Positions 3,112 to 20,323 of a stretch of DNA of 64,000 bases are shown piece by piece. How positions within the stretch are numbered: position 1 is the first letter of the stretch; each line of letters opens with the position of its first letter. The DNA comes from Escherichia coli (GTDB lineage: Bacteria > Pseudomonadota > Gammaproteobacteria > Enterobacterales > Enterobacteriaceae). A program made the translations under genes and the position numbers. The notes beneath the pieces were generated by a model. The model was given only the letters and a program-made list of their open reading frames with translations. It made no database searches and was not told the origin of the DNA. Location: NCBI RefSeq assembly GCF_024223415.1, contig NZ_CP100500.1. One strand, written 5' to 3'.

Positions 3112-4938
3112 ATGTACAATTTTATCACTATAATGTATGATGTCTTTTCATGTTTTGGTGTTCTGGCTAAAAACCAGAATATCCGTGACATCCGAAATAT
3201 TAAAAACTTTTCCTCACATCAACATTCACTGGCCGACATGTTTGATGAATTAACATACATTATTGACAAAGAACAGGTACTGAGCACAGAACAACGAAAA
3301 GTTATATTCAGGAGATATGAAGATCTGTATGTTAAACTCATGCACTATTCTGTTTTTACAGACAAAACACATCAAATAATAAAACAAAAATATTTTAATG
3401 ATGTTGTTCCAATGATTCTCGCGCTCGACATCAGGAACACATATCGCCCGGATAATGAGATGGCATTTTACTATCATATCCATTCTTTTCTCACTCAGAT
3501 ACCGGATAATGAGGATGATATATATCATGCTGTAAGGACATATATGAGAAATTATGTTAAGTTATGTTTATCCGGATACACACCAACGAATGCGCATTTC
3601 AAAAATATCTTTGATGGAGTATATGAATTCATTCGTAATATTCGCAAAAACAGTACACCCGGAAAAACAAAACTTATTGCAGCTATCAACATATGCAAAG
3701 AAGCCTGTAAATATCTGCTTTGTTTAAGTGATAAAGACAAGGAAATAATATTTTCCGACTTAGATAAAATTCAGGTTGCATGTTATTCTCTCACTATATT
3801 ACTGGCTTTCGAAAGACGAACATCATTAACAAGTAACCTGGCAACTTTATATAAAATGCTGATAAACGAAAGAGAAGTTTCAGAATATGAATGTCAGCAA
3901 TTATATTTAATCAACCCAATAGATGTAATGAATATACTGAACAAATACATATATTACTTCCCTGGTGAGAATTCACCTCTTTATACACTGAAAATTGACA
4001 GTGCATTATCGTGGGATGCCATTGATGCAATACGAGACTATAGTATTTCTGATATTTATCTTTATCCTGAACAAAAAACAATAAATTGTATCGTTGAGAT
4101 TGAAAACATTGTCTTTGGCGGTTACATTTATACATTGAGCGACGGCGTCACATTACAAAATATGGAAAACACTTTAAAAGATTCCTCATGTCATTATGTA
4201 TTAAATGGCTATACAGAATTTGTTAACTGTTTAAGACAACTTACTTCAGGAAAGACTGAAAGTGTTCAGCGTACCATTAATAAACTGGAGTACGAAAAAT
4301 TACCTTTTGGATTTATCATTGCCGCGTTTGCTATATTAAAAATAGCATTTAAGATAAAGTTCAGTAAAAATCATGTAAATACCAGGGCATTATTAAATGA
4401 CATCAGTTATTTTATGACTTATCAGGGCGAGTCCATTAATCTTATTTCACTGGATCATGAATATCCAGAGTTCCGTCTTCAAAATGACACAAATACATAT
4501 TTATTGGGAAGGATGATATTTCTATATAACTCAATGATCTATAAATTCAGAAACTGCCAGGAACATGAAACCAATAACATTAACTCAGTTATGATAAATA
4601 ACCTATTACAGGAAGTTGATATAGCCCTTGGTAAAATAAATGACATTATAGACAGCAGAAACATATCAGTCCCCCATGAACTGGCAAATATTCTTATCCA
4701 CGAAAAAATACTTACAACACGTGAAAAAAAAGGAAACCTGATAAGCCTGTTTGATGGATTCACTTTATTCCATTGTGTTGGAATGATAACCTTTCTTATC
4801 CATTACCTCAGAACTCCTGAAGAAAAAGTAGAAAATGTATTTATGTTATATGGTGCAGATAAAAACAATAAACTACGCAGAAGACTGATTTATGATGCAC
4901 TAGAAATAATTCAGTCTCAGCAGGAGATGAAACCTTAA
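3112..4938 (+). CDS. Hypothetical 608-aa protein; AT-rich orphan cargo gene with no recognisable motif
   Basis: Long ORF with canonical AAGGAG Shine-Dalgarno 8 nt upstream of the ATG; AT-rich composition; no P-loop, HEPN, nuclease or transmembrane signature seen by eye. Confidence 0.8.
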   Translation: MYNFITIMYDVFSCFGVLAKNQNIRDIRNIKNFSSHQHSLADMFDELTYIIDKEQVLSTEQRKVIFRRYEDLYVKLMHYSVFTDKTHQIIKQKYFNDVVPMILALDIRNTYRPDNEMAFYYHIHSFLTQIPDNEDDIYHAVRTYMRNYVKLCLSGYTPTNAHFKNIFDGVYEFIRNIRKNSTPGKTKLIAAINICKEACKYLLCLSDKDKEIIFSDLDKIQVACYSLTILLAFERRTSLTSNLATLYKMLINEREVSEYECQQLYLINPIDVMNILNKYIYYFPGENSPLYTLKIDSALSWDAIDAIRDYSISDIYLYPEQKTINCIVEIENIVFGGYIYTLSDGVTLQNMENTLKDSSCHYVLNGYTEFVNCLRQLTSGKTESVQRTINKLEYEKLPFGFIIAAFAILKIAFKIKFSKNHVNTRALLNDISYFMTYQGESINLISLDHEYPEFRLQNDTNTYLLGRMIFLYNSMIYKFRNCQEHETNNINSVMINNLLQEVDIALGKINDIIDSRNISVPHELANILIHEKILTTREKKGNLISLFDGFTLFHCVGMITFLIHYLRTPEEKVENVFMLYGADKNNKLRRRLIYDALEIIQSQQEMKP

Positions 4939-4961
4939 ACAGGAAAATTATTTTTTATAAA

Positions 4962-4986
4962 CAGGGGATTATTGAGTAATCCCCTG
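4962..4986. terminator. Hairpin between the convergent 608-aa gene and int
   Basis: Inverted repeat CAGGGGA...TCCCCTG flanked by A/T runs. Confidence 0.35.
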
Positions 4987-5122
4987 CTCATCAAAACCCA
5001 CTTTCCTGACAATCTGATAACTATCAGCTCAATACATTTGACATAAAAGAGATCCCTTAATTATTACCGTTACGGTCACAATCACATATCAAATCATGAT
5101 TGTACAATATACATTTTCACTA

Positions 5123-6325
5123 TTATTTATTCATAATCTGAGACATCACATAATCCGCCCATGCCTGCATCATCGGTACACGCTGCTCCAGTAGATCAGT
5201 ACGATGATATGCCGCCTCAACCTTATTTTTCAGCGTATGAGCGAGCGCCCTTTCAGCCAGATCCCGCGAATACCCCTGCTCACTACACCAGTCCCTGAAT
5301 GTTGAACGAAAACCATGTGCCGTGGCGACTCGCCCCGGAATATCACTGACGGCTTTCTTTTTACGCAGAAAACTGGTCAACACCATATCTGAAAGGATCT
5401 GCTGCTTTCTGGGTGAAGGAAACACCAGTTCATCATGCAGACCACGTATATTTTCCAGAATGTAAATAGCCTGTCGGGATAAAGGAACACGATGCTGTAC
5501 CCTGGCTTTCATTCTTTCTGCTGGTATCGTCCATATCTGCTTATGAAAATCAATTTCAGTCCAGCGCATTCCCCTGGCTTCACCCGAGCGGGTTGCTGTA
5601 AGTATCACCATTAATAACAATGCGCGGGTAACATTATAGGGTTCATCGGTATACACACTGGTCGCCACAAAAAGCGGTAACTGCCTCCATGGCATTGCGG
5701 GTTGGTGTTCATCACGTCCTCTTGTCTGCTGGGGAAGCAAATGATCAACCACATCCACAGGATTTGCCACACAAAAACCATGTGCCCATCCCCACTGCAT
5801 AACAACATGAATGCGCTGTTTAACCCGGCTTGCCGTTTCTGACAAAGTTAACCAGACTGGCCGCAGTGTTTCTGCCACGTCCGCAGCCGTAATCGAATCC
5901 AGCGTTTTCGCTCCCAGTTGAGGAAAGGCGTAATTCTCAAGCGTCGATAACCACTGCCGGACATGCTTTGGATTTTCCCATCCAGGAGACAGTTCTGCAT
6001 GTACACGTCTGGCTGCATCGGCAAATGTTGGGATAACAACTTTTTCAGCCTCAGCCTTTTTAATCTCCAGAGGATCATCACCAGCAGCAAGTTGCTCTCG
6101 CATTATCCGGGCAGTACGTGCAGCTTCAGCAATGCTGATCTCAGGGTAAGTTCCCAATCCAGCATTACGCCTTTTTTGTGTCACCGGACTTACATAACGA
6201 AAAACCCATTTACCCCGACCCTTTACTGAAGAAGGATGAAGGGTCAGTCCTGTAATTCCCCCATGGGGCAATGGTTTGTCATCAGGTTTGATATGCCTTG
6301 CTTTCGTATCCGTCAATACTGCCAT
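5123..6325 (-). CDS. int: Tyrosine integrase, P4/CP4-57 family
   Basis: 400 aa; C-terminal catalytic region HGFRSTFRDWCSEQGYSRDLAERALAHTLKNKVEAAYHRTDLLEQR is typical of P4-like integrases. Confidence 0.9.
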   Translation of the reverse strand: MAVLTDTKARHIKPDDKPLPHGGITGLTLHPSSVKGRGKWVFRYVSPVTQKRRNAGLGTYPEISIAEAARTARIMREQLAAGDDPLEIKKAEAEKVVIPTFADAARRVHAELSPGWENPKHVRQWLSTLENYAFPQLGAKTLDSITAADVAETLRPVWLTLSETASRVKQRIHVVMQWGWAHGFCVANPVDVVDHLLPQQTRGRDEHQPAMPWRQLPLFVATSVYTDEPYNVTRALLLMVILTATRSGEARGMRWTEIDFHKQIWTIPAERMKARVQHRVPLSRQAIYILENIRGLHDELVFPSPRKQQILSDMVLTSFLRKKKAVSDIPGRVATAHGFRSTFRDWCSEQGYSRDLAERALAHTLKNKVEAAYHRTDLLEQRVPMMQAWADYVMSQIMNK

Positions 6326-6543: not shown

Positions 6544-6692
6544 CATTTTATCTGCCTGTACGGCAGTGAACATGGTGGGCGGGTGGAGTATGTTACCAGT
6601 GAATTTCTAAGCTGCCTGTACGGCAGTGAACGTTTGCTGCAACCGCTAGCCAAGACGGTAGGTTTTTCTAAGCTGCCTGTACGGCAGTGAAC
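6544..6692 (-). CRISPR. Orphan type I-F CRISPR mini-array: 3 repeats, 2 spacers, no cas genes in the window
   Basis: Minus-strand repeat GTTCACTGCCGTACAGGCAGCTTAGAAA (the E. coli I-F repeat) at 6604-6631 and 6665-6692 plus a degenerate terminal copy at 6544-6571; spacers of 32-33 nt. Confidence 0.85.
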
Positions 6693-9531: not shown

Positions 9532-9616
9532 TGTCAGTTATCATCTTCGGTTACGGTTATCGGCAGAACGCCCTGCCGCTGACAAGAGCTTATTTGCCTG
9601 ACCAATCTACTCCACA

Positions 9617-9633
9617 TGATAGATAACTATCAT
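9617..9633. other. Left att core candidate TGATAGATAACTATCAT
   Basis: Near-identical copy TGATAAATAACTATCAT at 20087-20103. Confidence 0.4.
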
Positions 9634-9705
9634 TTATATCATTTAGTTAATTAGTCTTTATTTTTCATTATGTTGCAAATAACAAGCCCGTCAAAAACAG
9701 TGATA

Positions 9706-9760
9706 TTAACTACACCATTAACTACACCGCTTCACGAACAATATCGAACAACCGCGAACA
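9706..9760. repeat. Left-arm repeats: AACTACACC x2 followed by CGAACA x3 (candidate integrase or accessory-factor sites)
   Basis: The same motifs recur in the same orientation at 19946-20078. Confidence 0.4.
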
Positions 9761-9880
9761 AAGATCAACACGCTTTAATCATTATCATTTTCCGGCTATC
9801 CGTCATGAAGCTGGTGGATGATCTGCGTGGTGATTTCCACCATTCAGAGCAGGTGCGGTCATCATGACCATGCCATAACA

Positions 9881-9905
9881 AAAACCCCATATTCGTGGTT
9901 TTTCT
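9881..9905 (+). repeat. 25-bp direct repeat copy 1 (AAAACCCCATATTCGTGGTTTTTCT)
   Basis: Second copy AAACCCCCGGATTCGTGGTTTTCCT at 10518-10542; the pair flanks a hairpin-rich non-coding segment. Confidence 0.5.
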
Positions 9906-10517
9906 GTGTCGGGGCTATTCTGCTGTTGCCGTGCTGGTGGATATTCTCCGGTATGCGGCTCCCCATATCGGCATCAGGCCCACCAGCGTGAAGCGTTTTT
10001 CATTTTTCGCGGGTATAAAAAATCGATGGGGCGGGCAGTCCTGAAGACGTCAGGGTACAGAGATTTGACCCGCCCCTCCCTGTGCATGAGCACAATAAGT
10101 AACCGAAGGCGGAATTCCGCCCTCGGTACTTACATATGAGAAACGATATTTCTTCCACCGATACCCTTTATTTGGGTATCGCGAGTAAGCCCCAAAATCT
10201 GGGTGTTACTCTTACTACCCAAACTACGGGTAGTTTCCGTAGTTTCATGGTCGAGTTGCAAATCTGCAACTCACCCACCAGCCAGCGCAATGTCGCATTA
10301 TCAGTCCTCAGATGTGAGGGATGTAGCCAGCTTTTCCCCCAGTGGGGATTATCCAGTTACCGACGGTTTAACCGCCTGTACCAGCACAACGAAAGAATTT
10401 GCGGGTAGCTTTAAACTACTCACAACATCCCATCTTACAGGCCGTGCCTTTCTAACTTTTTACAATGCAATAAGTCAGGTAACGCTATGCGTTCCACCGT
10501 GTACACCGCGCCAGTAA

Positions 10518-10542
10518 AACCCCCGGATTCGTGGTTTTCCTG
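10518..10542 (+). repeat. 25-bp direct repeat copy 2
   Basis: See copy 1 at 9881-9905. Confidence 0.5.
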
Positions 10543-10554
10543 AATATCAGGAAT

Positions 10555-10929
10555 CTACCGCCGCAACCGTTCCGGCTTCTTCCACTGATAAGTGTTTTTC
10601 GCGCTCTCCCTCCGTTGTTGAGAACGGCGACGGTATGCCAGCAACTCAAGGACTCTGGTTCGTATGTTGCGCATATCCACGCCGTTAAGCTCAATACCAT
10701 CACGGCGCATCACCTCAGCAACAACACACGCGTAATTTTCGGCTATCACGCTGTCCGGCTGCGTGGCCTCCTGTTCGCCAGCCTGCTGGCTGATTCCGGT
10801 AATACTGCGGATTATCCCGAGCGCTTCGGTCTCGGTCATGGTCATGGCCTCCATAGTGATGGCGGGTCCTCCTTGTGGGGTGCCCTGCCACGGGGCGGGA
10901 GCATCGCGGAAAAAGGCTAGTTTTTGCAT
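10555..10929 (-). CDS. Hypothetical protein of the satellite packaging module
   Basis: 124-aa ORF downstream of the Nu1-like gene; no recognisable domain; start uncertain. Confidence 0.45.
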   Translation of the reverse strand: MQKLAFFRDAPAPWQGTPQGGPAITMEAMTMTETEALGIIRSITGISQQAGEQEATQPDSVIAENYACVVAEVMRRDGIELNGVDMRNIRTRVLELLAYRRRSQQRRESAKNTYQWKKPERLRR

Positions 10930-11090
10930 TTTTATTCGTTATCACCACCAATGCAATATATTGATATGACTTGATGTTTTATTTTTCGGTGTCGATTTCG
11001 ATTGTTTTTTGTTCATCACTGACGCATAACGCCCACCAGCGCAACGCTGAAAGCCAGTCAGTAAACTGGCTTCGGTCATTGTGCACTACG

Positions 11091-11645
11091 TTACTTGTCT
11101 TTATCCGGCTGAAACTTATCAGGCACATTTCCGGTAGTTTCCATCAGATAATCGGACAGCATTCGCGGGATGTTTTCATCAAGTTTTGTGCATGCGTTAC
11201 AGGCTCTGACAACTTCTTTTTTCAGGCCATCCAGCATGGCGGGGGTCATCTGTGGGAAGCTCCTTTGCATAGTAAGCGGGAGGCTGTCCATGATTGATGA
11301 AATCTGACTCGCCAGTTTTGAAAGCGCGTACATGCAAAACTCTGTATCAATCACGTCACCGCGATCGCGCTCGTTTTTAAGTTCCTGCGCCTCCGCCTGT
11401 GCTGTCAGTAATCTGATCCTGACTCGTAAAAGTTCATCATCGTCAATCTCGCCTTTGTCGTTTGTAATCTGGCTGATTGCATTGTTAACCCGATTATCTA
11501 TTACACTGGCGACATCATAAAACGTCTCACGGCCCTTACGCTCGACGGGAATCACTCCCCACTTATCGAACGCAGTGGCGCTTACTCGGCAGCTTTTCGC
11601 CATGTTTTTTTTATTCATCAGGTGCGATTTCATCAATACCCCCAC
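11091..11645 (-). CDS. Terminase small subunit, lambda Nu1-like
   Basis: LLRVRIRLLTAQAEAQELKNERDRGDVIDTEFCMYALSKLASQISSIMDSLPLTMQRSFPQM...LDENIPRMLSDYL aligns with lambda Nu1; probable true start at the MNKKNMAK Met near 11618. Confidence 0.8.
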   Translation of the reverse strand: MGVLMKSHLMNKKNMAKSCRVSATAFDKWGVIPVERKGRETFYDVASVIDNRVNNAISQITNDKGEIDDDELLRVRIRLLTAQAEAQELKNERDRGDVIDTEFCMYALSKLASQISSIMDSLPLTMQRSFPQMTPAMLDGLKKEVVRACNACTKLDENIPRMLSDYLMETTGNVPDKFQPDKDK

Positions 11646-11727
11646 TTAATTAATGCTTCAGGTTGGTGTGTTGGTGTTATCTTTCCATTTTTATTCATAG
11701 AGATAGAGCGAACAACAAAACCACCAC

Positions 11728-11790
11728 CAACCCGAAAAGGCTCATAAATAGCGAAAATCCGCAAGGTCGACGCCCCGTAACGGGTCCACA
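11728..11790 (-). other. Lambda-type cos site (cosN/cosB)
   Basis: Minus strand reads ACGGGGCGTCGACCTTGCGGATTTTCGCTATTTATGAGCCTTTTCGGG, matching the lambda cos sequence as I recall it (ACGGGGCGGCGACCTCGCGGGTTTTCGCTATTTATGAAAATTTTCCGG); about 120 bp upstream of the Nu1-like gene. Confidence 0.8.
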
Positions 11791-11805
11791 TGCCGGAAAG
11801 GACCC

Positions 11806-11835
11806 ATAAAAAATAAAGCCGGACTACTCCGGCTT
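11806..11835 (-). terminator. Rho-independent terminator after the FinO/ProQ-like gene
   Basis: Stem AGCCGGA / TCCGGCT followed on the minus strand by a T-rich run. Confidence 0.5.
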
Positions 11836-11858
11836 CGTCTCTTCATGTGGTCAGGGTT

Positions 11859-12539
11859 TTATGCTTTCCGTACGCCCGAGGAACTGGCATTTTTCAGAAT
11901 AATATTATGCCCTGCTGGTGGCTTACCGTTATGCTTATTTTCTGCCTTCATGTTTCTGCGCTCCTGCTGTTTTTTCTTCATCTCATCCAGTCGCTTCCCC
12001 GCGTTCAACTGGTGCTCCTGTGTCACCTCCCCGCACGGATGGCCTTTCAGGTCGTAACGCACGCCACCAGCCATCAGGGAACGGTAATATCGCACTGAAC
12101 TGACATAATACGCCAGCGTTGCGCGAAGCGCTCCCTGACCTAATGAAATACCTCTCGCAGTAATATCCTCCATCAGGTCATCAAATATGCCAACCTTAAG
12201 CGGTCTGGGCGATTCCTGGCTGAAAAGTTCAGGCCAGAGCGCGGCAAGGCGTTCAACGCGTCTGATATTTTTTTTCCGGCTCTTTTCTGATTTGCGTTTT
12301 GCTGCCGTCTTCTGTTGTGTTTTCTGCTCGCGGCTCTGCTTTTGCGCTGGTGTGGTTTTATCCGGCTGTTCAGCCTCCTGCGTCTTTTTCTGCGGTGTGC
12401 CGTATATGCCTTTTGGTTTTCGGTTAATGGTCAGCTTTGTCATGTTCTCCCCCTTTGTGCTGTTCCACCAGCGGCATCTGCTACCCCGTGTCGCTCCCGC
12501 TGGTGTCGTGTTTCCCCGCCTGTTAATAACCGTCATCAT
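11859..12539 (-). CDS. FinO/ProQ-domain RNA-binding protein with a Lys/Gln-rich N-terminal region
   Basis: RPLKVGIFDDLMEDITARGISLGQGALRATLAYYVSSVRYYRSLMAGGVRYDLKGHPCGEVTQEHQ aligns with the E. coli ProQ N-terminal domain (RPLKIGIFQDL...RLYTSSWRYL...RVDLDGNPCGEL); start uncertain. Confidence 0.75.
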   Translation of the reverse strand: MMTVINRRGNTTPAGATRGSRCRWWNSTKGENMTKLTINRKPKGIYGTPQKKTQEAEQPDKTTPAQKQSREQKTQQKTAAKRKSEKSRKKNIRRVERLAALWPELFSQESPRPLKVGIFDDLMEDITARGISLGQGALRATLAYYVSSVRYYRSLMAGGVRYDLKGHPCGEVTQEHQLNAGKRLDEMKKKQQERRNMKAENKHNGKPPAGHNIILKNASSSGVRKA

Positions 12540-12843
12540 TTACGTTATCAGGGTAATCACGCCATATTTCATCAGTAAGCGACGGTAGCCCCATCTGTTG
12601 TATTGTCCTGTCTGCGGCCCTTCTGACTGCGTGAACATCATAACGGTTTTCAGGTATCGGGCGCTTTGCCTTCCTGATACATTCCCTTGCTCTCATTGCC
12701 GCAAGTTCTCTGTGCCTGTCTTCCTGAAGAGTAATCATCACATCCTGCCACCTTCTGGCAGCCCGTCGCCACAGTCCCCTGCTCTCGAGTTCTTCTGCTG
12801 TCGCGTCGCTTATTGTCCGGTTCTTCGGTGTGCTGTTGTTCAT
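12523..12843 (-). CDS. PerC-family transcriptional activator-like protein
   Basis: N-terminal EELESRGLWRRAARRWQDVM resembles the PerC/Pch signature (recalled, not searched). Confidence 0.55.
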   Translation of the reverse strand: MNNSTPKNRTISDATAEELESRGLWRRAARRWQDVMITLQEDRHRELAAMRARECIRKAKRPIPENRYDVHAVRRAADRTIQQMGLPSLTDEIWRDYPDNVNDDGY

Positions 12844-12860
12844 GTTGCTCCCCGCCTGAT

Positions 12861-13271
12861 TCAGAAGGGTATATCATCTCCGTAGGGGTCATCGCCTCCC
12901 GCTGGTGGCTTATTCCCCTGTGCGCCTGTGGTTTTGCGTGTTTTTCCGCCCGGTCGCACTGTCCGCGCACTGATTACGCTGTCTGCGATAACCTGCCAGC
13001 CCTGCCGCGTTTCCCCGTTCTGTCCGGTCCACTGGCTCACCTGCATGTTACCCGCCACGCTCAGGAGTTCACCCTTGCGGTGCTTTGCCAGTGCTTCGGC
13101 CTGTCTGCCAAACGCCAGCACAGATAACCACATCGTCGCCGTTCCGTCATCTGCCTGGCTGCACGGAAGGGGGACCGCCATACTCGCCATCGCCATTTGT
13201 GTCCCCTTGCTGGTGGTCTTTAACTGCGGGTCAGCCACCAGCCGCCCGTAAGCCGCTATCTGTGCTGTCAT
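12861..13271 (-). CDS. ssb: Single-stranded DNA-binding protein (SSB)
   Basis: OB-fold-like N-terminus (IAAYGRLVADPQLKTTSKGTQMAMASMAV), Gly-rich linker and the acidic C-terminal tail DDIPF. Confidence 0.8.
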   Translation of the reverse strand: MTAQIAAYGRLVADPQLKTTSKGTQMAMASMAVPLPCSQADDGTATMWLSVLAFGRQAEALAKHRKGELLSVAGNMQVSQWTGQNGETRQGWQVIADSVISARTVRPGGKTRKTTGAQGNKPPAGGDDPYGDDIPF

Positions 13272-13525
13272 GCTGTATGCTCTCCGGTTTTAACGTTGAT
13301 GGTTGTCACCTGTTCCGCTCCGGCAATCTCCCGTTCTGTCAGCGTGGCAAAATTTGCCGCTACCGTTGTCATGAATGCGCTTATCAGTGCGGGATGTGCT
13401 TTCGCGTATCCTTCTCCCGCGCTGCGGTCGATAATTTTTATCGCCACCCTCAGCCAGTGCTCTGTAAGGTCAATGGCGCGGTTATGTGGTTTCTTCTGAT
13501 TATTAAGTTTTCCTGATGTGTGCAT
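13268..13525 (-). CDS. Hypothetical protein
   Basis: 85-aa ORF overlapping the ssb start by 4 nt (translational coupling). Confidence 0.5.
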   Translation of the reverse strand: MHTSGKLNNQKKPHNRAIDLTEHWLRVAIKIIDRSAGEGYAKAHPALISAFMTTVAANFATLTEREIAGAEQVTTINVKTGEHTA

Positions 13526-13570
13526 TTTTATTTTTACCCCCTCGTTTAAAAAGTTTTGTGTTGTGGTGCA

Positions 13571-13806
13571 CCTCCTCTACCTCTCTACACAATCATCTTT
13601 CAGGTCAGTAATGGCGCGGCTTTCAGCGGGGTAGAGGGCTTTTTTGGCCCTCTACCTGCCATCTACCACCCCCTCACAAATGCCCTGAATTATGGTAGAG
13701 GGTGTAGAGGGCTTTTAAGTACCTTCTACCTGCCATCTACCCAATCTATCAACATGAAATATATGTAATTATTTTCTTAAGGTAGAAGGGGTAGAGGGCT
13801 TTTGTC
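13571..13806. repeat. Iteron cluster; candidate satellite replication origin
   Basis: At least three copies of GGTAGAGGGCTTTT and repeated CTACCTGCCATCTACC, including the palindrome GGTAGAGGGC-TTTTTTG-GCCCTCTACC, immediately 3' of the primase gene. Confidence 0.55.
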
Positions 13807-13811
13807 TAAAA

Positions 13812-15560
13812 CTATAAAAACGCGTCGCAGTCGTCTGTTGTTGTCACGTTGGTTTGCGTAACCCCTTTAATCCTGCGCGTTATATATTCATGTCCGTAAA
13901 CTTTCGCCGCTGGCTTCATGGCCTTGCTGAACTCAGCCACGTTCAGCGGTTTGCTCCTGCCTGCATACGCCATAAACGCCAGATAGACGCGGTAAAGGCT
14001 GTTTCTGGTCGTGTACTTCACGGAATCGCCACCGCCCCCCATCATCAGGCCACGTGCTTCCTCCAGAAAATTCAGGAACTGGCAAAACTCAATAACCGGA
14101 TCCGTTTGCTGCTTTATCGCCAGTGCTTCATCACCGTCACGCTGTTCCAGTAGTAAAGCCCGCGCCTTTTCAGGGTCTGCAAAGTTCGCCAGTAATCGGC
14201 GGATAATGACGGGGATTTCAGCCGCAATCCTTTCCGGTAGCTCCCTGTCTTTTTCAGCCTCACTGACGATATTGTCGAAACGAAAAATCACGCGACGACG
14301 TGCCACACCTCCGGCCCGTTCGGTGAATATCATCGGGTTATTGTTGGTCGCCAGCACCACCGCCCTGATTACAGCCGTGAAACGCTTTTCGTATTTCGGG
14401 TTAATTTCCACGGGGTCACCGCCCGTGATTTTCTTGATGCCCGTTCCTTCGCCTGTATATTTCGGCTGGTCTGCCAGGACGATAAGACGACTCCCGACAA
14501 CCTGCGCACGCCCACCAGCATCATCAAGCGATGTCATCTCAGCGCTTACCGTGTTCTGTTTCCCTGCCAGAAGGCTGGCTATGTGCGTGAATGTACTTTT
14601 ACCGCTCCCGCCGTCTCCGGTGGCCTCAATAAACATCTGCCAGTCGTACCGGTTCGCCATAATCATGTACAGCGCGGCACATATACGCATCATCTTGCGC
14701 GGGTCTTTTCCGGCTGCGTGCTCAAGCCATTTATGAAAGTTTGGCGCGTTATCGCGGATGTTCTCCCCAGGTGCTGGTGGCGTGTACTCAATGCCATTGT
14801 GCGTGGTGATCCAGTTCTCCGGCGTGTGCGGGGAAAATTCCCCCGTTTTCAGGTCAAGCGCACCATTGGCGAACGGCAGCAAATCGCCGGACGGCTCGCC
14901 CATTGGTTCGGCAATAACTTTTAACGCTTCCACGGCGTTATTGATTACGCGCTTGCTGAAAGTGGCCCTGTGCTCTGAATAGATCGCCACCATTTCGCGG
15001 CTCAGTTCCATTGTGCTGACCGGACACCATACCCCGCCGCGCCATACGTGAACGATTTCACTTTCCGGATGCACACAAACGCCATCAAATCGACCAGCAA
15101 GCATCTGTGCGCGCTCACTGTCTGCCATTTGTGCCAGTTGCGTATTTTTCTGCTCCGGCATGGTAAGCCCTGCAGCAATATTTTCACGCTCAGCATTCAG
15201 ATAACGCCGCCAGTTTTCACACTTCTGACCGTGCATTCCTTCGGGGTAAAAATTTGCGTCCTGTACGCCAGCCGCCGCCAGCTTCTGACCAATCGCCTTT
15301 ATCATTACTGGCGCAAGATATCCGGCCCTGAATATACGCACGGATTTTCTGCCTTCCGGCACAATTTGCAGCTTATCCAGTTCGGATAACTGCTGCTCCC
15401 CAAGCCACACAGGAGGCTCATTATCTCCGGCCATACGCGCGTCATGTTCCTGCCATTGTTTCGCGTGTGCCCAGGCATCACTACCCGCAAAAATAATGAC
15501 TTCAGTTCCTTTGTGTTTTATGCCGCGTGACTGCAGTTTTACGTTCGGTGCCAGTTTCAT
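13812..15560 (-). CDS. Replication protein: primase/helicase (P4 alpha-like, P-loop NTPase)
   Basis: 582 aa; Walker A GDGGSGKSTFT; size and position match satellite pri-rep genes. Confidence 0.8.
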   Translation of the reverse strand: MKLAPNVKLQSRGIKHKGTEVIIFAGSDAWAHAKQWQEHDARMAGDNEPPVWLGEQQLSELDKLQIVPEGRKSVRIFRAGYLAPVMIKAIGQKLAAAGVQDANFYPEGMHGQKCENWRRYLNAERENIAAGLTMPEQKNTQLAQMADSERAQMLAGRFDGVCVHPESEIVHVWRGGVWCPVSTMELSREMVAIYSEHRATFSKRVINNAVEALKVIAEPMGEPSGDLLPFANGALDLKTGEFSPHTPENWITTHNGIEYTPPAPGENIRDNAPNFHKWLEHAAGKDPRKMMRICAALYMIMANRYDWQMFIEATGDGGSGKSTFTHIASLLAGKQNTVSAEMTSLDDAGGRAQVVGSRLIVLADQPKYTGEGTGIKKITGGDPVEINPKYEKRFTAVIRAVVLATNNNPMIFTERAGGVARRRVIFRFDNIVSEAEKDRELPERIAAEIPVIIRRLLANFADPEKARALLLEQRDGDEALAIKQQTDPVIEFCQFLNFLEEARGLMMGGGGDSVKYTTRNSLYRVYLAFMAYAGRSKPLNVAEFSKAMKPAAKVYGHEYITRRIKGVTQTNVTTTDDCDAFL

Positions 15561-15856
15561 TTTTTACCCCTGAATCCGTTAATCATGGTTTTCATCTTCT
15601 GAATATTGGCGCGTGCTTTCTCCCTGCTGGTGGGCACGTTACGCGGTACGGCCTGCACAAGAGAAAAATCACGCACAAACTGATAAACAGGCATCACGCA
15701 ATCATATTCGTAACCTTCATGGCGGTAGGTGATGCGCCGTTCTGCCACGCCTTTAATCGTTACCGTACCGCCGTAGTTATCACGGAAAATATCGCCGGGA
15801 CGGATTTCAGGCCGAGTGAGGCCGCTGGCAGTAAAGCCAGAATTTTTCTTTTTCAT
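15557..15856 (-). CDS. Hypothetical protein (99 aa), coupled to the primase gene
   Basis: Stop overlaps the primase start (ATGA). Confidence 0.6.
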   Translation of the reverse strand: MKKKNSGFTASGLTRPEIRPGDIFRDNYGGTVTIKGVAERRITYRHEGYEYDCVMPVYQFVRDFSLVQAVPRNVPTSREKARANIQKMKTMINGFRGKK

Positions 15857-15886
15857 GGTTTTATTTTCCTGTCAGTGATTCCGGCT

Positions 15887-16060
15887 TTATTCCGGCGCGA
15901 ATACAGGCTTCAGAAAAAAAGCCAGAGAACCAATAACCTCATTATTTCTAAGGCGGCATTGCGATTTCACTTTCCCTTTATCCAGGAATATCAAAACGCG
16001 CCCCGTATAATCAGATGGCACATTAAGCACTACAGGTAAGTGCGCTTCATGATTATTCAT
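15887..16060 (-). CDS. Hypothetical small protein (57 aa)
   Basis: Start trimmed to the ATG preceded by AGGAGGTGG; N-terminus MNNHEAHLPVVLNV; start overlaps the stop of the upstream gene. Confidence 0.5.
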   Translation of the reverse strand: MNNHEAHLPVVLNVPSDYTGRVLIFLDKGKVKSQCRLRNNEVIGSLAFFLKPVFAPE

Positions 16061-16340
16061 GGCTAACCACCTCCTGGAATTTTCTTCTGTAACGCGCCTC
16101 TGCCACATATTCAGCATAGTCCGACGCAATATTGAGAATATCGCTACCCGTTCCTGAATGTTCGGCGGTTTCCAGTAAAAAACATGCAGCTTTTACCATG
16201 TCAGCAACACATAACAGCGCAATATCTGTATCTTCCGGTGTGCCATCAAATTCCTGTTTCAGGGCATTAAAACGATCATCACGCATAACCCCATATTCAC
16301 AATCAGCAATCAGGATGGCTTTGGCCTCATTCAGTGCCAT
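16053..16340 (-). CDS. Hypothetical protein; N-terminal extent uncertain (may start at 16496)
   Basis: Only the C-terminal 95-147 codons of the 662-aa track ORF look protein-like (MALNEAKAILIADCEYGVMRDDRFNALKQEFDGTPEDTDIALLCVADMVKAACFLLETAEHS). Confidence 0.4.
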   Translation of the reverse strand: MALNEAKAILIADCEYGVMRDDRFNALKQEFDGTPEDTDIALLCVADMVKAACFLLETAEHSGTGSDILNIASDYAEYVAEARYRRKFQEVVSHE

Positions 16341-16494
16341 ATCAGCGGTAAGCTGTGCGTAGGCCAGCAAATGCGGGATTATTGCCCCTGTATATTCCGG
16401 CTCTCTGATAATGTGGTCGGATGTGTTGATTAAATAGTTTGTGCGAAAAATGCACCTGTAACCATCAGTTAACAACGGATATACAGGGGGGACC

Positions 16495-16665
16495 ATGAAT
16501 GATAAGGGGGTGCCGTTTGATGTGCTCCTGCAAAAGCTGAATGCTGCACGCGCCGCAAGGGAACGTGAGCGCATGAGTAATAACCCTGTCCCTCCTGAAT
16601 TACCTCGCCCTGAACATTTTCCGCTTGAGGATTTCATCAGGGGACGAATCCGAACAAAACGATAA
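16495..16665 (+). CDS. Small protein (56 aa), paralog of the 16909 ORF
   Basis: ATG preceded by a G-rich Shine-Dalgarno; shares the PxxFPLE(D/R)FI motif with ORF 16909..17103; below the track length cutoff. Confidence 0.35.
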   Translation: MNDKGVPFDVLLQKLNAARAARERERMSNNPVPPELPRPEHFPLEDFIRGRIRTKR

Positions 16666-16908
16666 CCGCCGCCGTGATATGAGGCATCACGACGCAATGC
16701 ATTACAGGTGAGCACCATGAACAAATCCATATTATCCCCCACAGTTCTGGACGTAAACACAAAGCAGCGACAGATATTATTACGCGCCGTCATTAAAGCC
16801 AGACACGAGAAATTAAACCAAATCTTAAAATAAGATACGCCGCTACCGCTGTAAGTCTTCATCAGAAACAGAAAACGCCAGAGCAGATGAGCACGGAGGT
16901 AACTCTTT

Positions 16909-17103
16909 ATGAAAATAAACGAATCAGGGGAAATTACCGAAGCCAGCGTGGTACGCCAGCGGAGGCGGGAACGACGGGTACGGCCCCCCGCGCCATCCGA
17001 TAATTTCCCGCTTGAGCGCTTCATCAGTGAACGGCCCCGCATACGCTGGAACGGCACAACCCCATACCCCGAGGAGAGACAGACAAAAAACAAACAGCGA
17101 TGA
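16909..17103 (+). CDS. Small protein (64 aa), paralog of the 16495 ORF
   Basis: GGAGGT Shine-Dalgarno 9 nt upstream; C-terminal FPLERFISERPRIR. Confidence 0.4.
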   Translation: MKINESGEITEASVVRQRRRERRVRPPAPSDNFPLERFISERPRIRWNGTTPYPEERQTKNKQR

Positions 17104-17382
17104 TGAAATCTGGAGGCCAATACCATCACCCAGCCAGTCGGGGATTGCTGGCGGGCTTCCTGTTCGCTGGTGGCCCCGATGGTAATAACGCGTGGTTGTG
17201 CTGTGCTCAGGGCGATAAAACGCCAGATGTATTTATTCAGGTTGTGCGGGTCCCGCCCTTGCGGGTGTGTGGTATGATTTAACATAGCTACCTCGATACG
17301 CTTTCTATCGTTGGTGGTTAGAAGCCCCGTTACTGCTCCAACAGTGCGGGGTTTCGTCGTTTCTGCACCTTTCATCAACAAG

Positions 17383-17434
17383 GTGTTGAACACCAATTTA
17401 AGCCTAGGTGTTAAACACGCCAAGTGTTGAACAC
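17383..17434 (+). promoter_or_regulatory. Three palindromic operator-like sites GTGTT(G/A)AACAC
   Basis: Sites at 17383-17393, 17408-17418 and 17424-17434, about 50 bp upstream of the small gene at 17485. Confidence 0.55.
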
Positions 17435-17484
17435 TTATTTTTTTTCCTGCATACTGCATTTGTTTTTTGTAAGGGGTACACAAC

Positions 17485-17664
17485 ATGGCGACAAAAGCAG
17501 TAAACGCAAAATCACAAACAGTTGCGGCAAGGGTTCCGCATGAAGTTATGAACAATGTTGAGGCGGTAAAAATGCCTGGTGAAAGTACAGGGCAGTTTGT
17601 AACAGCAGCATTAAAGCGAGAAGTTGAATACCGCCAGCGCCGCAAGGCCAAAGAATCAGAATAA
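17485..17664 (+). CDS. Small DNA-binding protein, ribbon-helix-helix-like (59 aa)
   Basis: AAGGGG Shine-Dalgarno; N-terminal strand-like TVAARVPHEVMNNVEAV then a basic helix; downstream of the palindromic operators. Confidence 0.45.
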   Translation: MATKAVNAKSQTVAARVPHEVMNNVEAVKMPGESTGQFVTAALKREVEYRQRRKAKESE

Positions 17665-17712
17665 TCACTATCAGCGCCGTGGTGTGAGGTACTGCGGCGC
17701 ATTGTTTTAAAG

Positions 17713-17913
17713 GTGATAATTATGAATAACCAGGAACTACAAAATAAAGCATTATCAATTATCATGCGCCAGCGTGAGAAAACCCGCAGGGAAATAAATA
17801 AGGCATTAACCCGTACTGAAAATCTTAAAGTTCCTGATAAGTTCGCCCTTGATCCTTTTGTCGAGAAATACCCTCGGCGCTTAAAAGCAAACAAAAACCG
17901 CCCACCTGGCTGA
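17713..17913 (+). CDS. Hypothetical small protein (66 aa)
   Basis: AGGTGA Shine-Dalgarno; basic helical sequence. Confidence 0.4.
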   Translation: MIIMNNQELQNKALSIIMRQREKTRREINKALTRTENLKVPDKFALDPFVEKYPRRLKANKNRPPG

Positions 17914-18051
17914 CAATCCACCAGCAAGCCACCACACTGGACACATTGCCCACCAGCCAGCAAATCGCTATGATGTTCGGGCTTATGTTTAGTGTTTTCC
18001 CATTGGCGACCGCCCCCGGTCGCCTTTGTTTTATGTGTCATATACTCCCCT

Positions 18052-18348
18052 TTACGCTGCCTTGCCTGAATTAATGCGATCCCGGCTTTTAACCCATTCC
18101 ATAACCTCGGACAGCAGCCAACCTACAGAACGCCCACCAAGATTACGGCGAGACGGAAAGCTCCCTTTTTTCTCCAGTTCGTAGCGTGTAGTGCGACACA
18201 CTCCAGTTAACTTACGACATTCATCCTCACGGATTACGCGATCTTCATTTATTTCACGCATACAAAAACCTACATAAAAATTACGTATATAAACTTTTCT
18301 CTTAGCTGTAGATATATGAGATCGGATATTACTTAGATTCTTTTTCAC
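18052..18348 (-). CDS. AlpA-family transcriptional regulator
   Basis: C-terminal TRYELEKKGSFPSRRNLGGRSVGWLLSEVMEWV matches the AlpA pattern; true start may be an internal Met. Confidence 0.7.
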   Translation of the reverse strand: MKKNLSNIRSHISTAKRKVYIRNFYVGFCMREINEDRVIREDECRKLTGVCRTTRYELEKKGSFPSRRNLGGRSVGWLLSEVMEWVKSRDRINSGKAA

Positions 18349-18680
18349 CTCTTAAATTAAAAACACAACCATGCTAAAGGCTTTGTTCGCTAAGGTTCGT
18401 AGAAGCTCGTTAGTGTTTAAAATCGTGTCACGAGTTTTTAAGCGACGCAACAAAAAATGTCGTCATTTGGCATGTCACCTGAATTACCTCATTAAAAACA
18501 AATAGATAAACCATCAGATGTTGGAACAATCAAGAAACAGAGAATAAGAACTCAGAAGAAGACATTTCAATTTTTTTCGATAGTTGACACATATAAAGAG
18601 AAGATATTTGCAGATATTCCCCGATATTCTAAGATCTATTCACGGCTGTAATCTCTTAAAGAAAAAACAGCCGTAATTTG

Positions 18681-19919
18681 TCAAGAATTTTGGGGGTAAA
18701 TTCGCGGGGTCATAACAACGATTTTTTCATCATTGTTCTGGAGAAGCTCGAGACGGTCTACCCATAGATTAAGAGCGTCACGCTTTGCATCGAGATAACG
18801 GGAGTGGTTATAGACGCGTTGCATTCCTGGCATCTGGTGGGCAGTAAGCTGTTCAACAATATGCGGATCCACGCCTAAATCGTTCAGCATGGTTGTAAAT
18901 GTGTGCCGGATGTCGTGCAACGACCAGGGGGCTTGATTAATGCGTCTGTGTGCCGTTCTTCCGTACTCTGCTACGGATGATTGCCCTTTCAGTTCTCCAA
19001 GCAATAAGCCCGTGTGCCTGTTCTGCTCCACCAGCTTCATGACGAACGGCAAGATCGCTTCCGGTATTGGCCTGAATATTGCTACCTTCGTTTTGCTGTG
19101 TTCTTTCGGCACAGTCCAGAGCATTTCTTTAAAATCCCATTCCCGAACCTCGGAGCGTCTTAGCTCAGTGGTACGGCATCCGAAGACAATCAGAAGGCGA
19201 ATTAAAGCGCTGTAGTACGGCGGGAAAATTTTTTCATCCAGTGCGCGGAGTAGCTCGCCAAGCTCCTTGTTTGTTAGCACTCGCTCGCTTATTTCTGCTT
19301 TTTTTCCCACATCACCTACGACCATATCATCAAGAACGTTACTGACGGCGTAGCGACGTTTACGGCAGTACTTAAGCGCCTGTTTGCATACCTGCAACAA
19401 AAAGCCGGCTGATACCGGATTACGCTTAGCAAGCTGGTCAAAACAGGCCAGCCAGTGGCGTAGCTCGCATTTATCCAGCGGCATAGCACCAATCTGGCTG
19501 ATTATGTGCTTATTGATACGGCTTTTCAGTGATTCGTGGTCAGTGCGCTTTTCCTTCGCATACGACTCAAGCCAGTAAGTGAGCGCGTCCTTAACCGTCA
19601 CGGGGGCTAACGCTTCCTGCACTGTGTGATTAAGCTCATGGCGTGGATTTTTCCCCTCCGCCAGCCAGGCGCGACACTGTGCCGCTTTTTCCCTGGCTGC
19701 TTTCAGGCTCAGATCGGGATAGTTGCCCAGTCTCAGGCGTTCCGGTGATACCTGCCTGCCAGTTCCGGCCCTGTAAGTGAAATACCAGGTTAACAGGCCG
19801 CTGGTGGAATGTCTTACGCTAAGATTGCCACCGTCATTAAAAAAGGCGTTTTTTGTGGTTGGTGATCCGCTTAATTTTCGTAAAAGAGTGTCGCTAAGTC
19901 TATGAATTGCGCTGCTCAT
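18681..19919 (-). CDS. int: Tyrosine integrase
   Basis: 412 aa; catalytic region LHDIRHTFTTMLNDLGVDPHIVEQLTAHQMPGMQRVYNHSRY. Confidence 0.9.
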   Translation of the reverse strand: MSSAIHRLSDTLLRKLSGSPTTKNAFFNDGGNLSVRHSTSGLLTWYFTYRAGTGRQVSPERLRLGNYPDLSLKAAREKAAQCRAWLAEGKNPRHELNHTVQEALAPVTVKDALTYWLESYAKEKRTDHESLKSRINKHIISQIGAMPLDKCELRHWLACFDQLAKRNPVSAGFLLQVCKQALKYCRKRRYAVSNVLDDMVVGDVGKKAEISERVLTNKELGELLRALDEKIFPPYYSALIRLLIVFGCRTTELRRSEVREWDFKEMLWTVPKEHSKTKVAIFRPIPEAILPFVMKLVEQNRHTGLLLGELKGQSSVAEYGRTAHRRINQAPWSLHDIRHTFTTMLNDLGVDPHIVEQLTAHQMPGMQRVYNHSRYLDAKRDALNLWVDRLELLQNNDEKIVVMTPRIYPQNS

Positions 19920-19945
19920 GTTTCGCGTTTCCGGTCATCAAAATT

Positions 19946-20078
19946 AACTACACCATTGACTACACCGTGCATCGTACAAGGGCAAACCGTGACGAACAAG
20001 AGCGAACAAGTAAAACAAAATTTTCCTTTATAATCATAGCGATGAATGCACACAAAACACTACCACGAACACCCGCGA
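19946..20078. repeat. Right-arm repeats: AACTACACC / GACTACACC followed by CGAACA motifs
   Basis: Same motifs and orientation as the left arm at 9706-9760; overlaps the int promoter region. Confidence 0.4.
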
Positions 20079-20086
20079 ACACTAGA

Positions 20087-20103
20087 TGATAAATAACTAT
20101 CAT
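20087..20103. other. Right att core candidate TGATAAATAACTATCAT
   Basis: Direct repeat of 9617-9633 with one mismatch. Confidence 0.4.
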
Positions 20104-20323
20104 CTATCGTTGGCATCAGCGACATCTGTCACATTCCTGTCAATAGCGTTAACTGCTTCAAATTTTTGATTCATACCTGCCCCCTGTCCCCTGTCAAATG
20201 CTTGACGGCTCGCCCTAATTCTCTAAATTGTATTTCTAGAGTTGGCGAGGTTTTGAACAGCCCCCTCTCTGACCCCGGTTTATTCCATCTTACTTGTATA
20301 AGATTTGCGAAGGATGTCGAAGC

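Follow-up and report, generated by a model that had tools for sequence, protein, structure and literature searches.

A rare and divergent perC allele directly behind ssb on a phage-inducible chromosomal island of Escherichia coli

The window analyzed in this work, a stretch of 64,000 nucleotides from Escherichia coli (contig NZ_CP100500.1), carries a perC gene whose host element is a phage-inducible chromosomal island (PICI) of the EcCICFT073 type located between clpS and cspD (Table 1). Every island gene from 10555 to 19919 lies on the minus strand, and in the direction of transcription the order is integrase, AlpA, an Icd-like region, DUF4222, a D5-type primase, iterons, an 85-aa ORF, ssb, perC, a ProQ/FinO gene, terS and a terminal ORF. 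The imperfect direct repeats found on both sides delimit an island that extends from about 9609 to 20107, i.e., about 10.5 kb, and a 12-nt tandem, ATTAACTACACC, is present in two copies at 9705-9728 and again at 19943-19966. Since ARAGORN finds no tRNA genes in the window, the att site of the island is not a tRNA. No RNA families are found inside the island by Rfam, no tail or lysis genes are present among its annotated features, and Pfam returns nothing for the ORF at 16053-17285, for the small plus-strand ORFs and for the 608-aa ORF at 3112-4938.

Table 1. Coordinates of the features of the island and of the perC locus in the window.
Feature	Position	Strand	Remarks
Left att-like repeat	9609..9637		83% match to 20079-20107
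Conserved terminal PICI ORF, phrog_1561	10555..10929	minus	
Nu1-type terminase small subunit (terS) homologue	11091..11645	minus	slot of rppA (c1503) in EcCICFT073
Intrinsic-terminator-like hairpin and T-run	11815..11836	minus	just past the ProQ/FinO gene; consensus scan only
ProQ/FinO-family gene	11859..12443	minus	RefSeq start 12443, open frame to 12539; located 79 nt 3' of perC
PerC-family ORF	12523..12843	minus	ATG-to-stop, 106 aa; identical to RefSeq WP_001066127.1
Shine-Dalgarno GGGGAG	12848..12853	minus	4 nt 5' of the perC ATG; read from sequence
PICI ssb (single-stranded DNA-binding protein)	12861..13271	minus	immediately upstream of perC
85-aa ORF (orf85), phrog_1231	13268..13525	minus	first gene after the ori
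Iteron region, putative PICI ori	13628..13803		GGGGTAGAGGGCTTTT x3, CCCTCTACCTGCCATCTACC x2; directly 3' of the primase gene
Promoter-like site in the putative ori region	13718..13689	minus	consensus scan
D5_N / DUF5906 / Pox_D5 primase-helicase (pri-rep)	13812..15560	minus	
DUF4222 protein gene	15557..15856	minus	
AlpA-family regulator	18052..18348	minus	RefSeq start gives 18052-18261
Tyrosine integrase of the island	18681..19919	minus	
Right att-like repeat	20079..20107		just before yljB/cspD

The int, alpA and pri-rep genes stand in the conserved order and orientation, which is also the order of EcCICFT073, the element falls into the size class of ~10-15 kb, it has att-like repeats of its own, and its iterons are located 3' of pri-rep, as was described for the PICI ori (PMC6092414). 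Such a gene organization is that of Gram-negative PICIs (PMC6092414). The preliminary description of this DNA had considered perC to be regulatory cargo of a mobile satellite. The mobile satellite is borne out by int, alpA, the D5-type primase, the iterons and the terS-like gene, but incidental cargo describes the gene less well than its occupancy of a conserved slot after ssb (see below). The IHE3034 PICI, which Fillol-Salom et al. included in their work and which transfers poorly with resident prophages (PMC6092414), is 90% identical to the window island over 67% of the length of the latter and occupies the same clpS-yljB/cspD site. The perC gene is absent from this closely related island, and thus it is dispensable for the island architecture. 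Five genomes that contain at least 80% of the window island are mostly those of chicken or chicken-meat isolates.

The product of the perC ORF begins with MNNSTPKNRTISDATAEELESRGLWRRAARRWQDV, and its whole sequence is MNNSTPKNRTISDATAEELESRGLWRRAARRWQDVMITLQEDRHRELAAMRARECIRKAKRPIPENRYDVHAVRRAADRTIQQMGLPSLTDEIWRDYPDNVNDDGY. The preliminary description proposed a search for the Pfam PerC family (PF06069), and the outcome is decisive: the match has an E-value of 9.5e-27 and a score of 93.5 bits at a curated gathering cutoff of 22.6 bits, with residues 11-100 aligned to positions 2-90 of the 90-position model. PHROG phrog_994 matches with E=9.4e-28, three further, weaker PHROG matches bear the label "transcriptional activator", and the identical protein WP_001066127.1 is named "PerC family transcriptional regulator" in RefSeq (chromosome NZ_CP182371.1, 99.9% identical). 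The exact protein sequence is present on at least 1000 public contigs, and there is no second PerC-like ORF in the 64-kb window. A word-indexed homologue search returned 8 close matches only, and an exhaustive HMMER search over 1.84 billion cluster representatives (E<=0.001) returned 123 relatives, nearly all of which carry G-[LFM]-[WY]-R-R-A. In EPEC PerC (pMAR2), KGFYRRAADRW is found at the corresponding positions. GLWRRAA, which occupies residues 23-29 and had been associated with PerC/Pch from the outset, is therefore a true signature of the family. L19, E20, R26, R27, A28, W32 and C55 do not vary in an alignment of 62 sequences, in which the conservation of D13, A16, G23, R31, A76, M84 and G85 is at least 90%; the window protein contains the complete signature LE..G[LFM][WY]RRA..RW together with the conserved Cys and the C-terminal MG motif. 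Its small size (106 aa) and its location on a mobile element, the ~10.5-kb PICI, are also those of PerC-family members. The dN/dS value of 0.38, calculated versus a 92%-identical allele, is expected of a coding gene under purifying selection. The ORF is thus confirmed, at the level of sequence, as a genuine PerC-family gene.

The gap between the ssb stop and the perC start is 17 nt. This short distance, the promoter-like sequence within the ori region and the hairpin after proQ suggest that orf85, ssb, perC and proQ probably constitute one transcription unit, with the promoter and terminator scan matches occurring at chance density. The first gene of this putative unit, orf85 (phrog_1231), is also kept in EcCICFT073, in Sakai Sp7 and in the IHE3034 island.

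The position of perC in the window, next to ssb on its 3' side, is a conserved one. When IMG/VR was pattern-scanned using the family alignment, 309 relatives were obtained, and 79 of the best 80 loci, which were examined, have a PerC HMM match. PerC directly follows ssb in 67 of these 79 loci, while in the others it is located after ssb-proQ (five loci), after orf85 (four loci, in which ssb was undetected) or at a contig edge (three loci). EcCICFT073, the island that adjoins phoQ of strain CFT073, has the primase gene followed by a hypothetical ORF, ssb, the PerC-family gene, c1499/c1500 (capsid/decoration) and rppA. The O157:H7 Sakai "prophage Sp7" has primase, hypothetical ORF, ssb and pchE (ECs_1588), and it combines this PICI front end with capsid, portal and terminase genes of its own. 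Three alternative modules are found 3' of the slot in the IMG/VR loci: proQ with Nu1 terS, the CFT073-type capsid/decoration module, and the Sp7-type capsid-portal-terminase module. In two of the loci (L013 and L015), the CFT073-type capsid module comes after proQ and a PerC allele identical to that of the window, which makes the window island look like a variant without this module. The idea that PerC is a module-specific activator, whose allele tracks the downstream module, was rejected because the PchE-type allele is found with all three types of packaging modules in the IMG/VR loci.

The window PerC is 47% identical to PchE, 44% to the EcCICFT073 homologue, 37% to EcCIMP1_025, about 34-35% to EPEC PerC, and 33% to both PchA and PchD. 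It has in common with PchE the C-terminal tail MG..(S/T)DEIWR(D/N)YPD, and by position it corresponds to PchE (Pch group 3), yet it is a distinct allele: its identity to PchE is too low for the same allele cluster, and it falls into a separate cluster at 80% identity. At this threshold, 68 of the 79 IMG/VR proteins are of the PchE type, compared with only 4 of the window allele. The median identity of the IMG/VR loci to the window island is 79% for SSB and 75% for orf85 but only 46% for PerC, and this divergence above that of the flanks matches the "allelic variants of PerC" described for PICIs (PMC6092414). The allele is both divergent and rare, since among 5426 complete E. coli genomes, 1645 of which have a PICI-type ssb, it is present in 51 (at a threshold of at least 90% nucleotide identity), and the whole ssb-perC-proQ block is present in 9. 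Strain SCU-115 has the 92% allele, which is intact within an IS-flanked remnant where ssb and proQ are truncated.

A separate observation concerns the neighbor of perC. Among the 80 loci nearest to the query, taken without phylogenetic correction, a ProQ/FinO gene is present in all nine with divergent (non-PchE-type) PerC alleles and in none of the 70 with other PerC alleles (68 of the PchE type and a two-locus cluster). Three clusters of alleles are represented among the nine loci, and perC and proQ occur in either order after ssb (ssb-perC-proQ or ssb-proQ-perC). On an IncI plasmid, a PerC-family gene that adjoins an HTH regulator is located ~1.6 kb from a ProQ/FinO gene. Given the nature of the sample, the linkage of PerC and ProQ/FinO on PICIs is a lead only, i.e., a new side observation that is cheap to follow in satellite biology and not a discovery.

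The AlphaFold2 model of the window PerC, obtained with the 62-sequence alignment (mean pLDDT 81.6), is all-helical, with predicted helices at 14-22, 25-38, 42-59, 70-83 and 91-95. A basic N-terminal three-helix domain (~11-60, pI 10) is followed by an acidic C-terminal part (pI 4.7). An HTH domain is recognizable neither by profile nor in the predicted fold, and neither sequence searches nor Foldseek revealed relatives in the PDB. The NCBIfam model ANR_neg_reg (NF033650) aligns with residues 15-61 of the window protein through positions 8-54 of its 54, and the score of 14 bits (E=0.033) is below the curated cutoff of 32 bits. The same model matches 60 of the 62 PerC family members in one register (best E=6.3e-12); among nine members scored individually, EcCIMP1_025 has 31.1, EPEC PerC 18.2, PchE 17.9 and PchA 13.6 bits, again in one register, and the window PerC has the second-lowest score. 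The spacing A16-x3-E20-x7-A28-x3-W32 of the window protein is that of the published ANR consensus A10, E14, A22, W26 (PMC4983702), and a phage protein named as a member of the ANR family superposes on the window model with 0.7 A over 48 columns. The N-terminal three helices of the PerC family are thus related to the ANR family, and this relationship is family-wide; weak ANR matches were seen by Pick et al. for EcCIMP1_025 (PMC11773190). The ANR proteins make protein-protein contacts with AraC-type activators, and one of them, Aar, binds H-NS directly (PMC5570504, PMC10148876). The ANR relatedness of the whole PerC family therefore points to a protein-protein, H-NS-centered mechanism, but taken alone it does not distinguish activators from repressors within the family.

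Several known systems can be compared with the window gene. PchE of O157:H7 Sakai is the closest to it: both proteins belong to the same Pfam family, PchE has the top identity among characterized members, and pchE occupies the same primase-orf-ssb-PerC slot on Sp7, which is a capsid-forming PICI adjoining phoQ. The two proteins differ in 53% of residues. The window protein is extended by 9 residues at the N-terminus, its acidic tail is longer, and its gene is followed by the ProQ/FinO gene whereas pchE is followed by the capsid module. The PerC-like protein of EcCICFT073, the prototype Gram-negative PICI, (WP_000233305.1) has the same island type and post-ssb position, but it consists of 82 aa without the C-terminal tail, and in its island c1499/c1500 and rppA take the place of the proQ and Nu1-like terS genes of the window island. 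EcCIMP1_025 of the PICI EcCIMP1 (Pick et al. 2025, PMC11773190) is another PICI-borne PerC-family protein. Its gene is not adjacent to ssb and belongs to a backbone with a TOPRIM/DUF927 primase, and the protein, an experimentally identified LEE1 repressor, is much nearer to the ANR profile than the window PerC. The founders of the family, EPEC PerC of pEAF (perABC) and EHEC PchA/B/C, have the signature LE..G[LF][WY]RRA..RW, the invariant Cys and the size class of the window protein. Neither is found on PICIs, as EPEC PerC is encoded in a plasmid operon with the AraC-type PerA and PchA/B/C in the late regions of lambdoid prophages, and they activate LEE1 through the relief of H-NS silencing (PMC4764244). 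The ANR proteins (Aar, Rnr) are small three-helix proteins with the conserved A/E/A/W spacing and an H-NS-linked activity (PMC5570504), but they are smaller than 10 kDa and typically encoded beside AraC-family genes, while the window PerC has an extra C-terminal part of ~45 residues with two more helices. The window perC is thus real and the family-level reading of it is correct, but it is already known, and pchE, which occupies the same slot, has been characterized; because of the RefSeq label of WP_001066127.1 and the published PICI-borne PerC alleles (PMC6092414, PMC11773190), it is not a discovery.

On balance, we consider it probable that the gene is a rare divergent PerC allele in the post-ssb PICI slot whose product most likely remodels H-NS-type complexes or partner proteins, and that activation of LEE/ler is an unlikely function. 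The protein would bind and remodel H-NS-type nucleoprotein complexes or partner regulators and change transcription in this way, and it would not act as a classical sequence-specific DNA-binding activator. Remodeling of H-NS complexes is most likely by analogy with PchA, which relieves H-NS/StpA/Hha silencing, and with Aar. The activation by PchA is wholly dependent on H-NS/StpA/Hha/YdgT silencing and is accompanied by lower H-NS occupancy, and the Pch proteins have no homology to known DNA-binding proteins (PMC4764244). The identity of only 33% to PchA and the low ANR score of the window PerC speak against this reading. The phenotypes of PchE, namely, lower csgD and higher flhDC, rest on over-expression (PMC6265319, PMC7369912).

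The preliminary description implied that the gene may activate ler and virulence loci, and were the window PerC a LEE virulence activator of the PerC/PchABC kind, the entry of the island into a LEE-positive strain would switch on ler (LEE1). Such a function is consistent with the Pfam family common to the window protein, PerC and PchA and with Fillol-Salom 2018, where some of the PerC homologues encoded by PICIs are said to be activators of LEE (PMC6092414). However, the identity is 33-35% to PchA and EPEC PerC but 47% to PchE, and whereas EPEC PerC and Pch group 1 (PchA/B/C) are LEE1 activators, groups 2 (PchD) and 3 (PchE) have little LEE effect (PMC6265319). The EcCIEDL933 and EcCICFT073 PerC-like genes are reportedly inert on LEE1-lacZ, and the same work describes the silencing of LEE1 by EcCIMP1_025 in C. 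rodentium (PMC11773190). The genomes with most of the window island are mostly of chicken or chicken-meat origin. Activation of virulence loci is thus unsupported for the nearest relatives, by analogy with which LEE/ler activation by the window PerC would be unlikely, and we regard a LEE activator of this kind as very improbable. A negative regulator, or anti-activator, similar to EcCIMP1_025 and to ANR proteins, which would dampen host regulators of adhesins, virulence or biofilm, is also an unlikely explanation. The ANR relatedness across the PerC family, the LEE1 silencing by EcCIMP1_025 (PMC11773190) and the repression of csgD by over-expressed PchE (PMC6265319) are in agreement with it, and so is the genetic context of some relatives, since the IncI plasmid homologue adjoins an HTH regulator and EPEC perC is in an operon with the AraC-type PerA, an ANR-like arrangement. 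Only one of the nine members scored individually, however, is less ANR-like than the window protein, which has 14 bits at a cutoff of 32; its identity to EcCIMP1_025 is no more than 37%, and no AraC-family gene is present among the island genes.

The gene might instead serve the life cycle of the satellite, acting on the helper phage or on its own island, for example, through counter-silencing after induction or through binding of a helper protein, in which case hypervariability would reflect helper specificity. The conserved position in the string of replication and packaging genes, with the same strand and tight spacing, the low median identity of PerC (46%) compared to SSB and orf85, and the strict linkage of the divergent alleles to the ProQ/FinO gene would all fit. 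Yet the PchE-type allele accompanies each of the three packaging modules and hence is tied to none, the IHE3034 relative does without perC, and the steady-state expression of pchE is low and falls on SOS induction (PMC7369912). A role in phage interference was also considered for the window perC; when the post-ori genes of EcCICFT073 were cloned singly, only c1503 (rppA) inhibited lambda (PMC6739421), which also argues against a life-cycle factor, and we find this explanation rather improbable. That the ORF is decaying or functionless and retained by hitch-hiking could be suggested by the 92% allele, which resides in an IS-flanked remnant in which both ssb and proQ are truncated. The perC gene is intact and of full length even there, and with a dN/dS of 0.38, every family-invariant residue retained, the identical protein on at least 1000 contigs and a good Shine-Dalgarno sequence, this explanation is hardly credible.

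With the remodeling of H-NS-type complexes or partners by a rare PerC allele as the favored reading, the novelty that remains lies in the family-wide ANR relationship and in the PerC-ProQ/FinO linkage. A broader proposal, which at present must be treated as doubtful, is that the post-ssb PerC slot holds not virulence cargo but a hypervariable module, related to ANR and directed at H-NS or partner regulators, that in a minority lineage, to which the window island belongs, this module and a ProQ/FinO RNA chaperone work as a two-gene unit, and that PerC and ANR constitute one superfamily. If this is true, the two-gene unit would couple transcriptional counter-silencing to RNA-level control of genes of the satellite, of the helper or of the host surface and motility, and members of the PerC/ANR superfamily would act by protein-protein contacts, with the partner setting the outcome as activation or repression. 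For the locus itself, the result adds mainly certainty that the gene label is correct and that the satellite belongs to a well-studied PICI lineage. The label "PerC family" should not be equated with a LEE activator, since the family includes, besides activators (PerC, PchABC), the repressor EcCIMP1_025 and members reported as LEE-inert (PchD, PchE and the EcCICFT073 homologue).

The NCBIfam model ANR_neg_reg (NF033650) is matched by 60 of the 62 PerC-family proteins in our alignment, in a single register and with a best E-value of 6.3e-12, and the matching proteins include EPEC PerC, PchA, PchD and PchE. EcCIMP1_025, the PerC-family protein of the PICI EcCIMP1, scored 31.1 bits against this model, whose cutoff is 32 bits. 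The PerC and ANR proteins look like members of a single superfamily. The 4669-aa protein P0076 contains 40 separate PerC-like stretches (phmmer E=1.3e-5), and this resemblance is probably due to composition, i.e., to an Ala/Arg/Glu-rich coiled coil, rather than to homology.

The window perC is paired with a ProQ/FinO-family gene. Such a gene accompanies divergent (non-PchE-type) PerC alleles in nine of nine IMG/VR PICI loci (L012-L015, L047, L059, L064, L065 and L090), in two gene orders, and was found in none of the 70 IMG/VR loci with other PerC alleles (68 PchE-type and a cluster of two). On an IncI plasmid, a ProQ/FinO gene lies about 1.6 kb from PerC.

Features of the window and of its perC product
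Feature	Position	Strand	Remark
608-aa ORF	3112-4938	+	no Pfam match
Second P4-type tyrosine integrase	5123-6325	-	
Type I-F CRISPR repeats (n=2)	6604-6631, 6665-6692	-	Rfam CRISPR-DR4, 50 bits each
Nu1-type terminase small subunit homologue	11091-11645	-	in slot of EcCICFT073 rppA
ProQ/FinO-family gene	11859-12443	-	
perC	12523-12843	-	
ANR_neg_reg-matching stretch of perC product	residues 15-61		
Stop-free frame, 1.99 kb (662 aa)	16053-18041	-	Icd-like region
YlcI/YnfO-family ORF	17485-17664	+	opposite the long frame

Ahead of the terminal ORF, related loci have either rppA or a Nu1-type terminase small subunit homologue; EcCICFT073 carries rppA (c1503, 144 aa) in this slot, whereas the window island carries the terminase homologue. 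In the Icd-like region, RefSeq annotates 16053-17285 as a 410-aa "Icd-like protein", while the Icd-like genes of relatives encode only 66-67 aa. The long ORF has no Pfam match. Since AT skew reverses within the stop-free frame and small plus-strand ORFs, including one of the YlcI/YnfO family, lie opposite to it, most of the long ORF is probably spurious.

Directly downstream of clpA, two type I-F repeats enclose a single spacer, with no cas genes identified adjoining them. At the corresponding position, the IHE3034 relative carries a complete I-F locus. The second integrase and the 608-aa ORF both lie beyond this CRISPR remnant, which suggests another island at 3112-6325. ARAGORN found no tRNA across the 64-kb window.

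In E. coli SCU-115, an IS-flanked fragment (L011 8749-9635) contains an undamaged copy of the 92% allele of the window perC, together with truncated versions of the adjacent ssb and proQ; judging from this one inspected genome, the same arrangement may explain most of the 42 genomes with the 92% allele. NZ_CP148430.1, a 12,152-bp circular record deposited as a non-mobilizable plasmid, encodes an integrase, an Icd-like gene, a TOPRIM/DUF927 primase and a PerC-family gene, and looks like a circularised EcCIMP1-like PICI. The IHE3034 PICI is a 90%-identical relative occupying the same clpS/cspD site. It lacks the PerC gene, and the approximately 415 bp from ssb to the capsid module (L002 9948-10362) contain no PerC-like ORF, so the PerC gene is dispensable for the architecture of the island.
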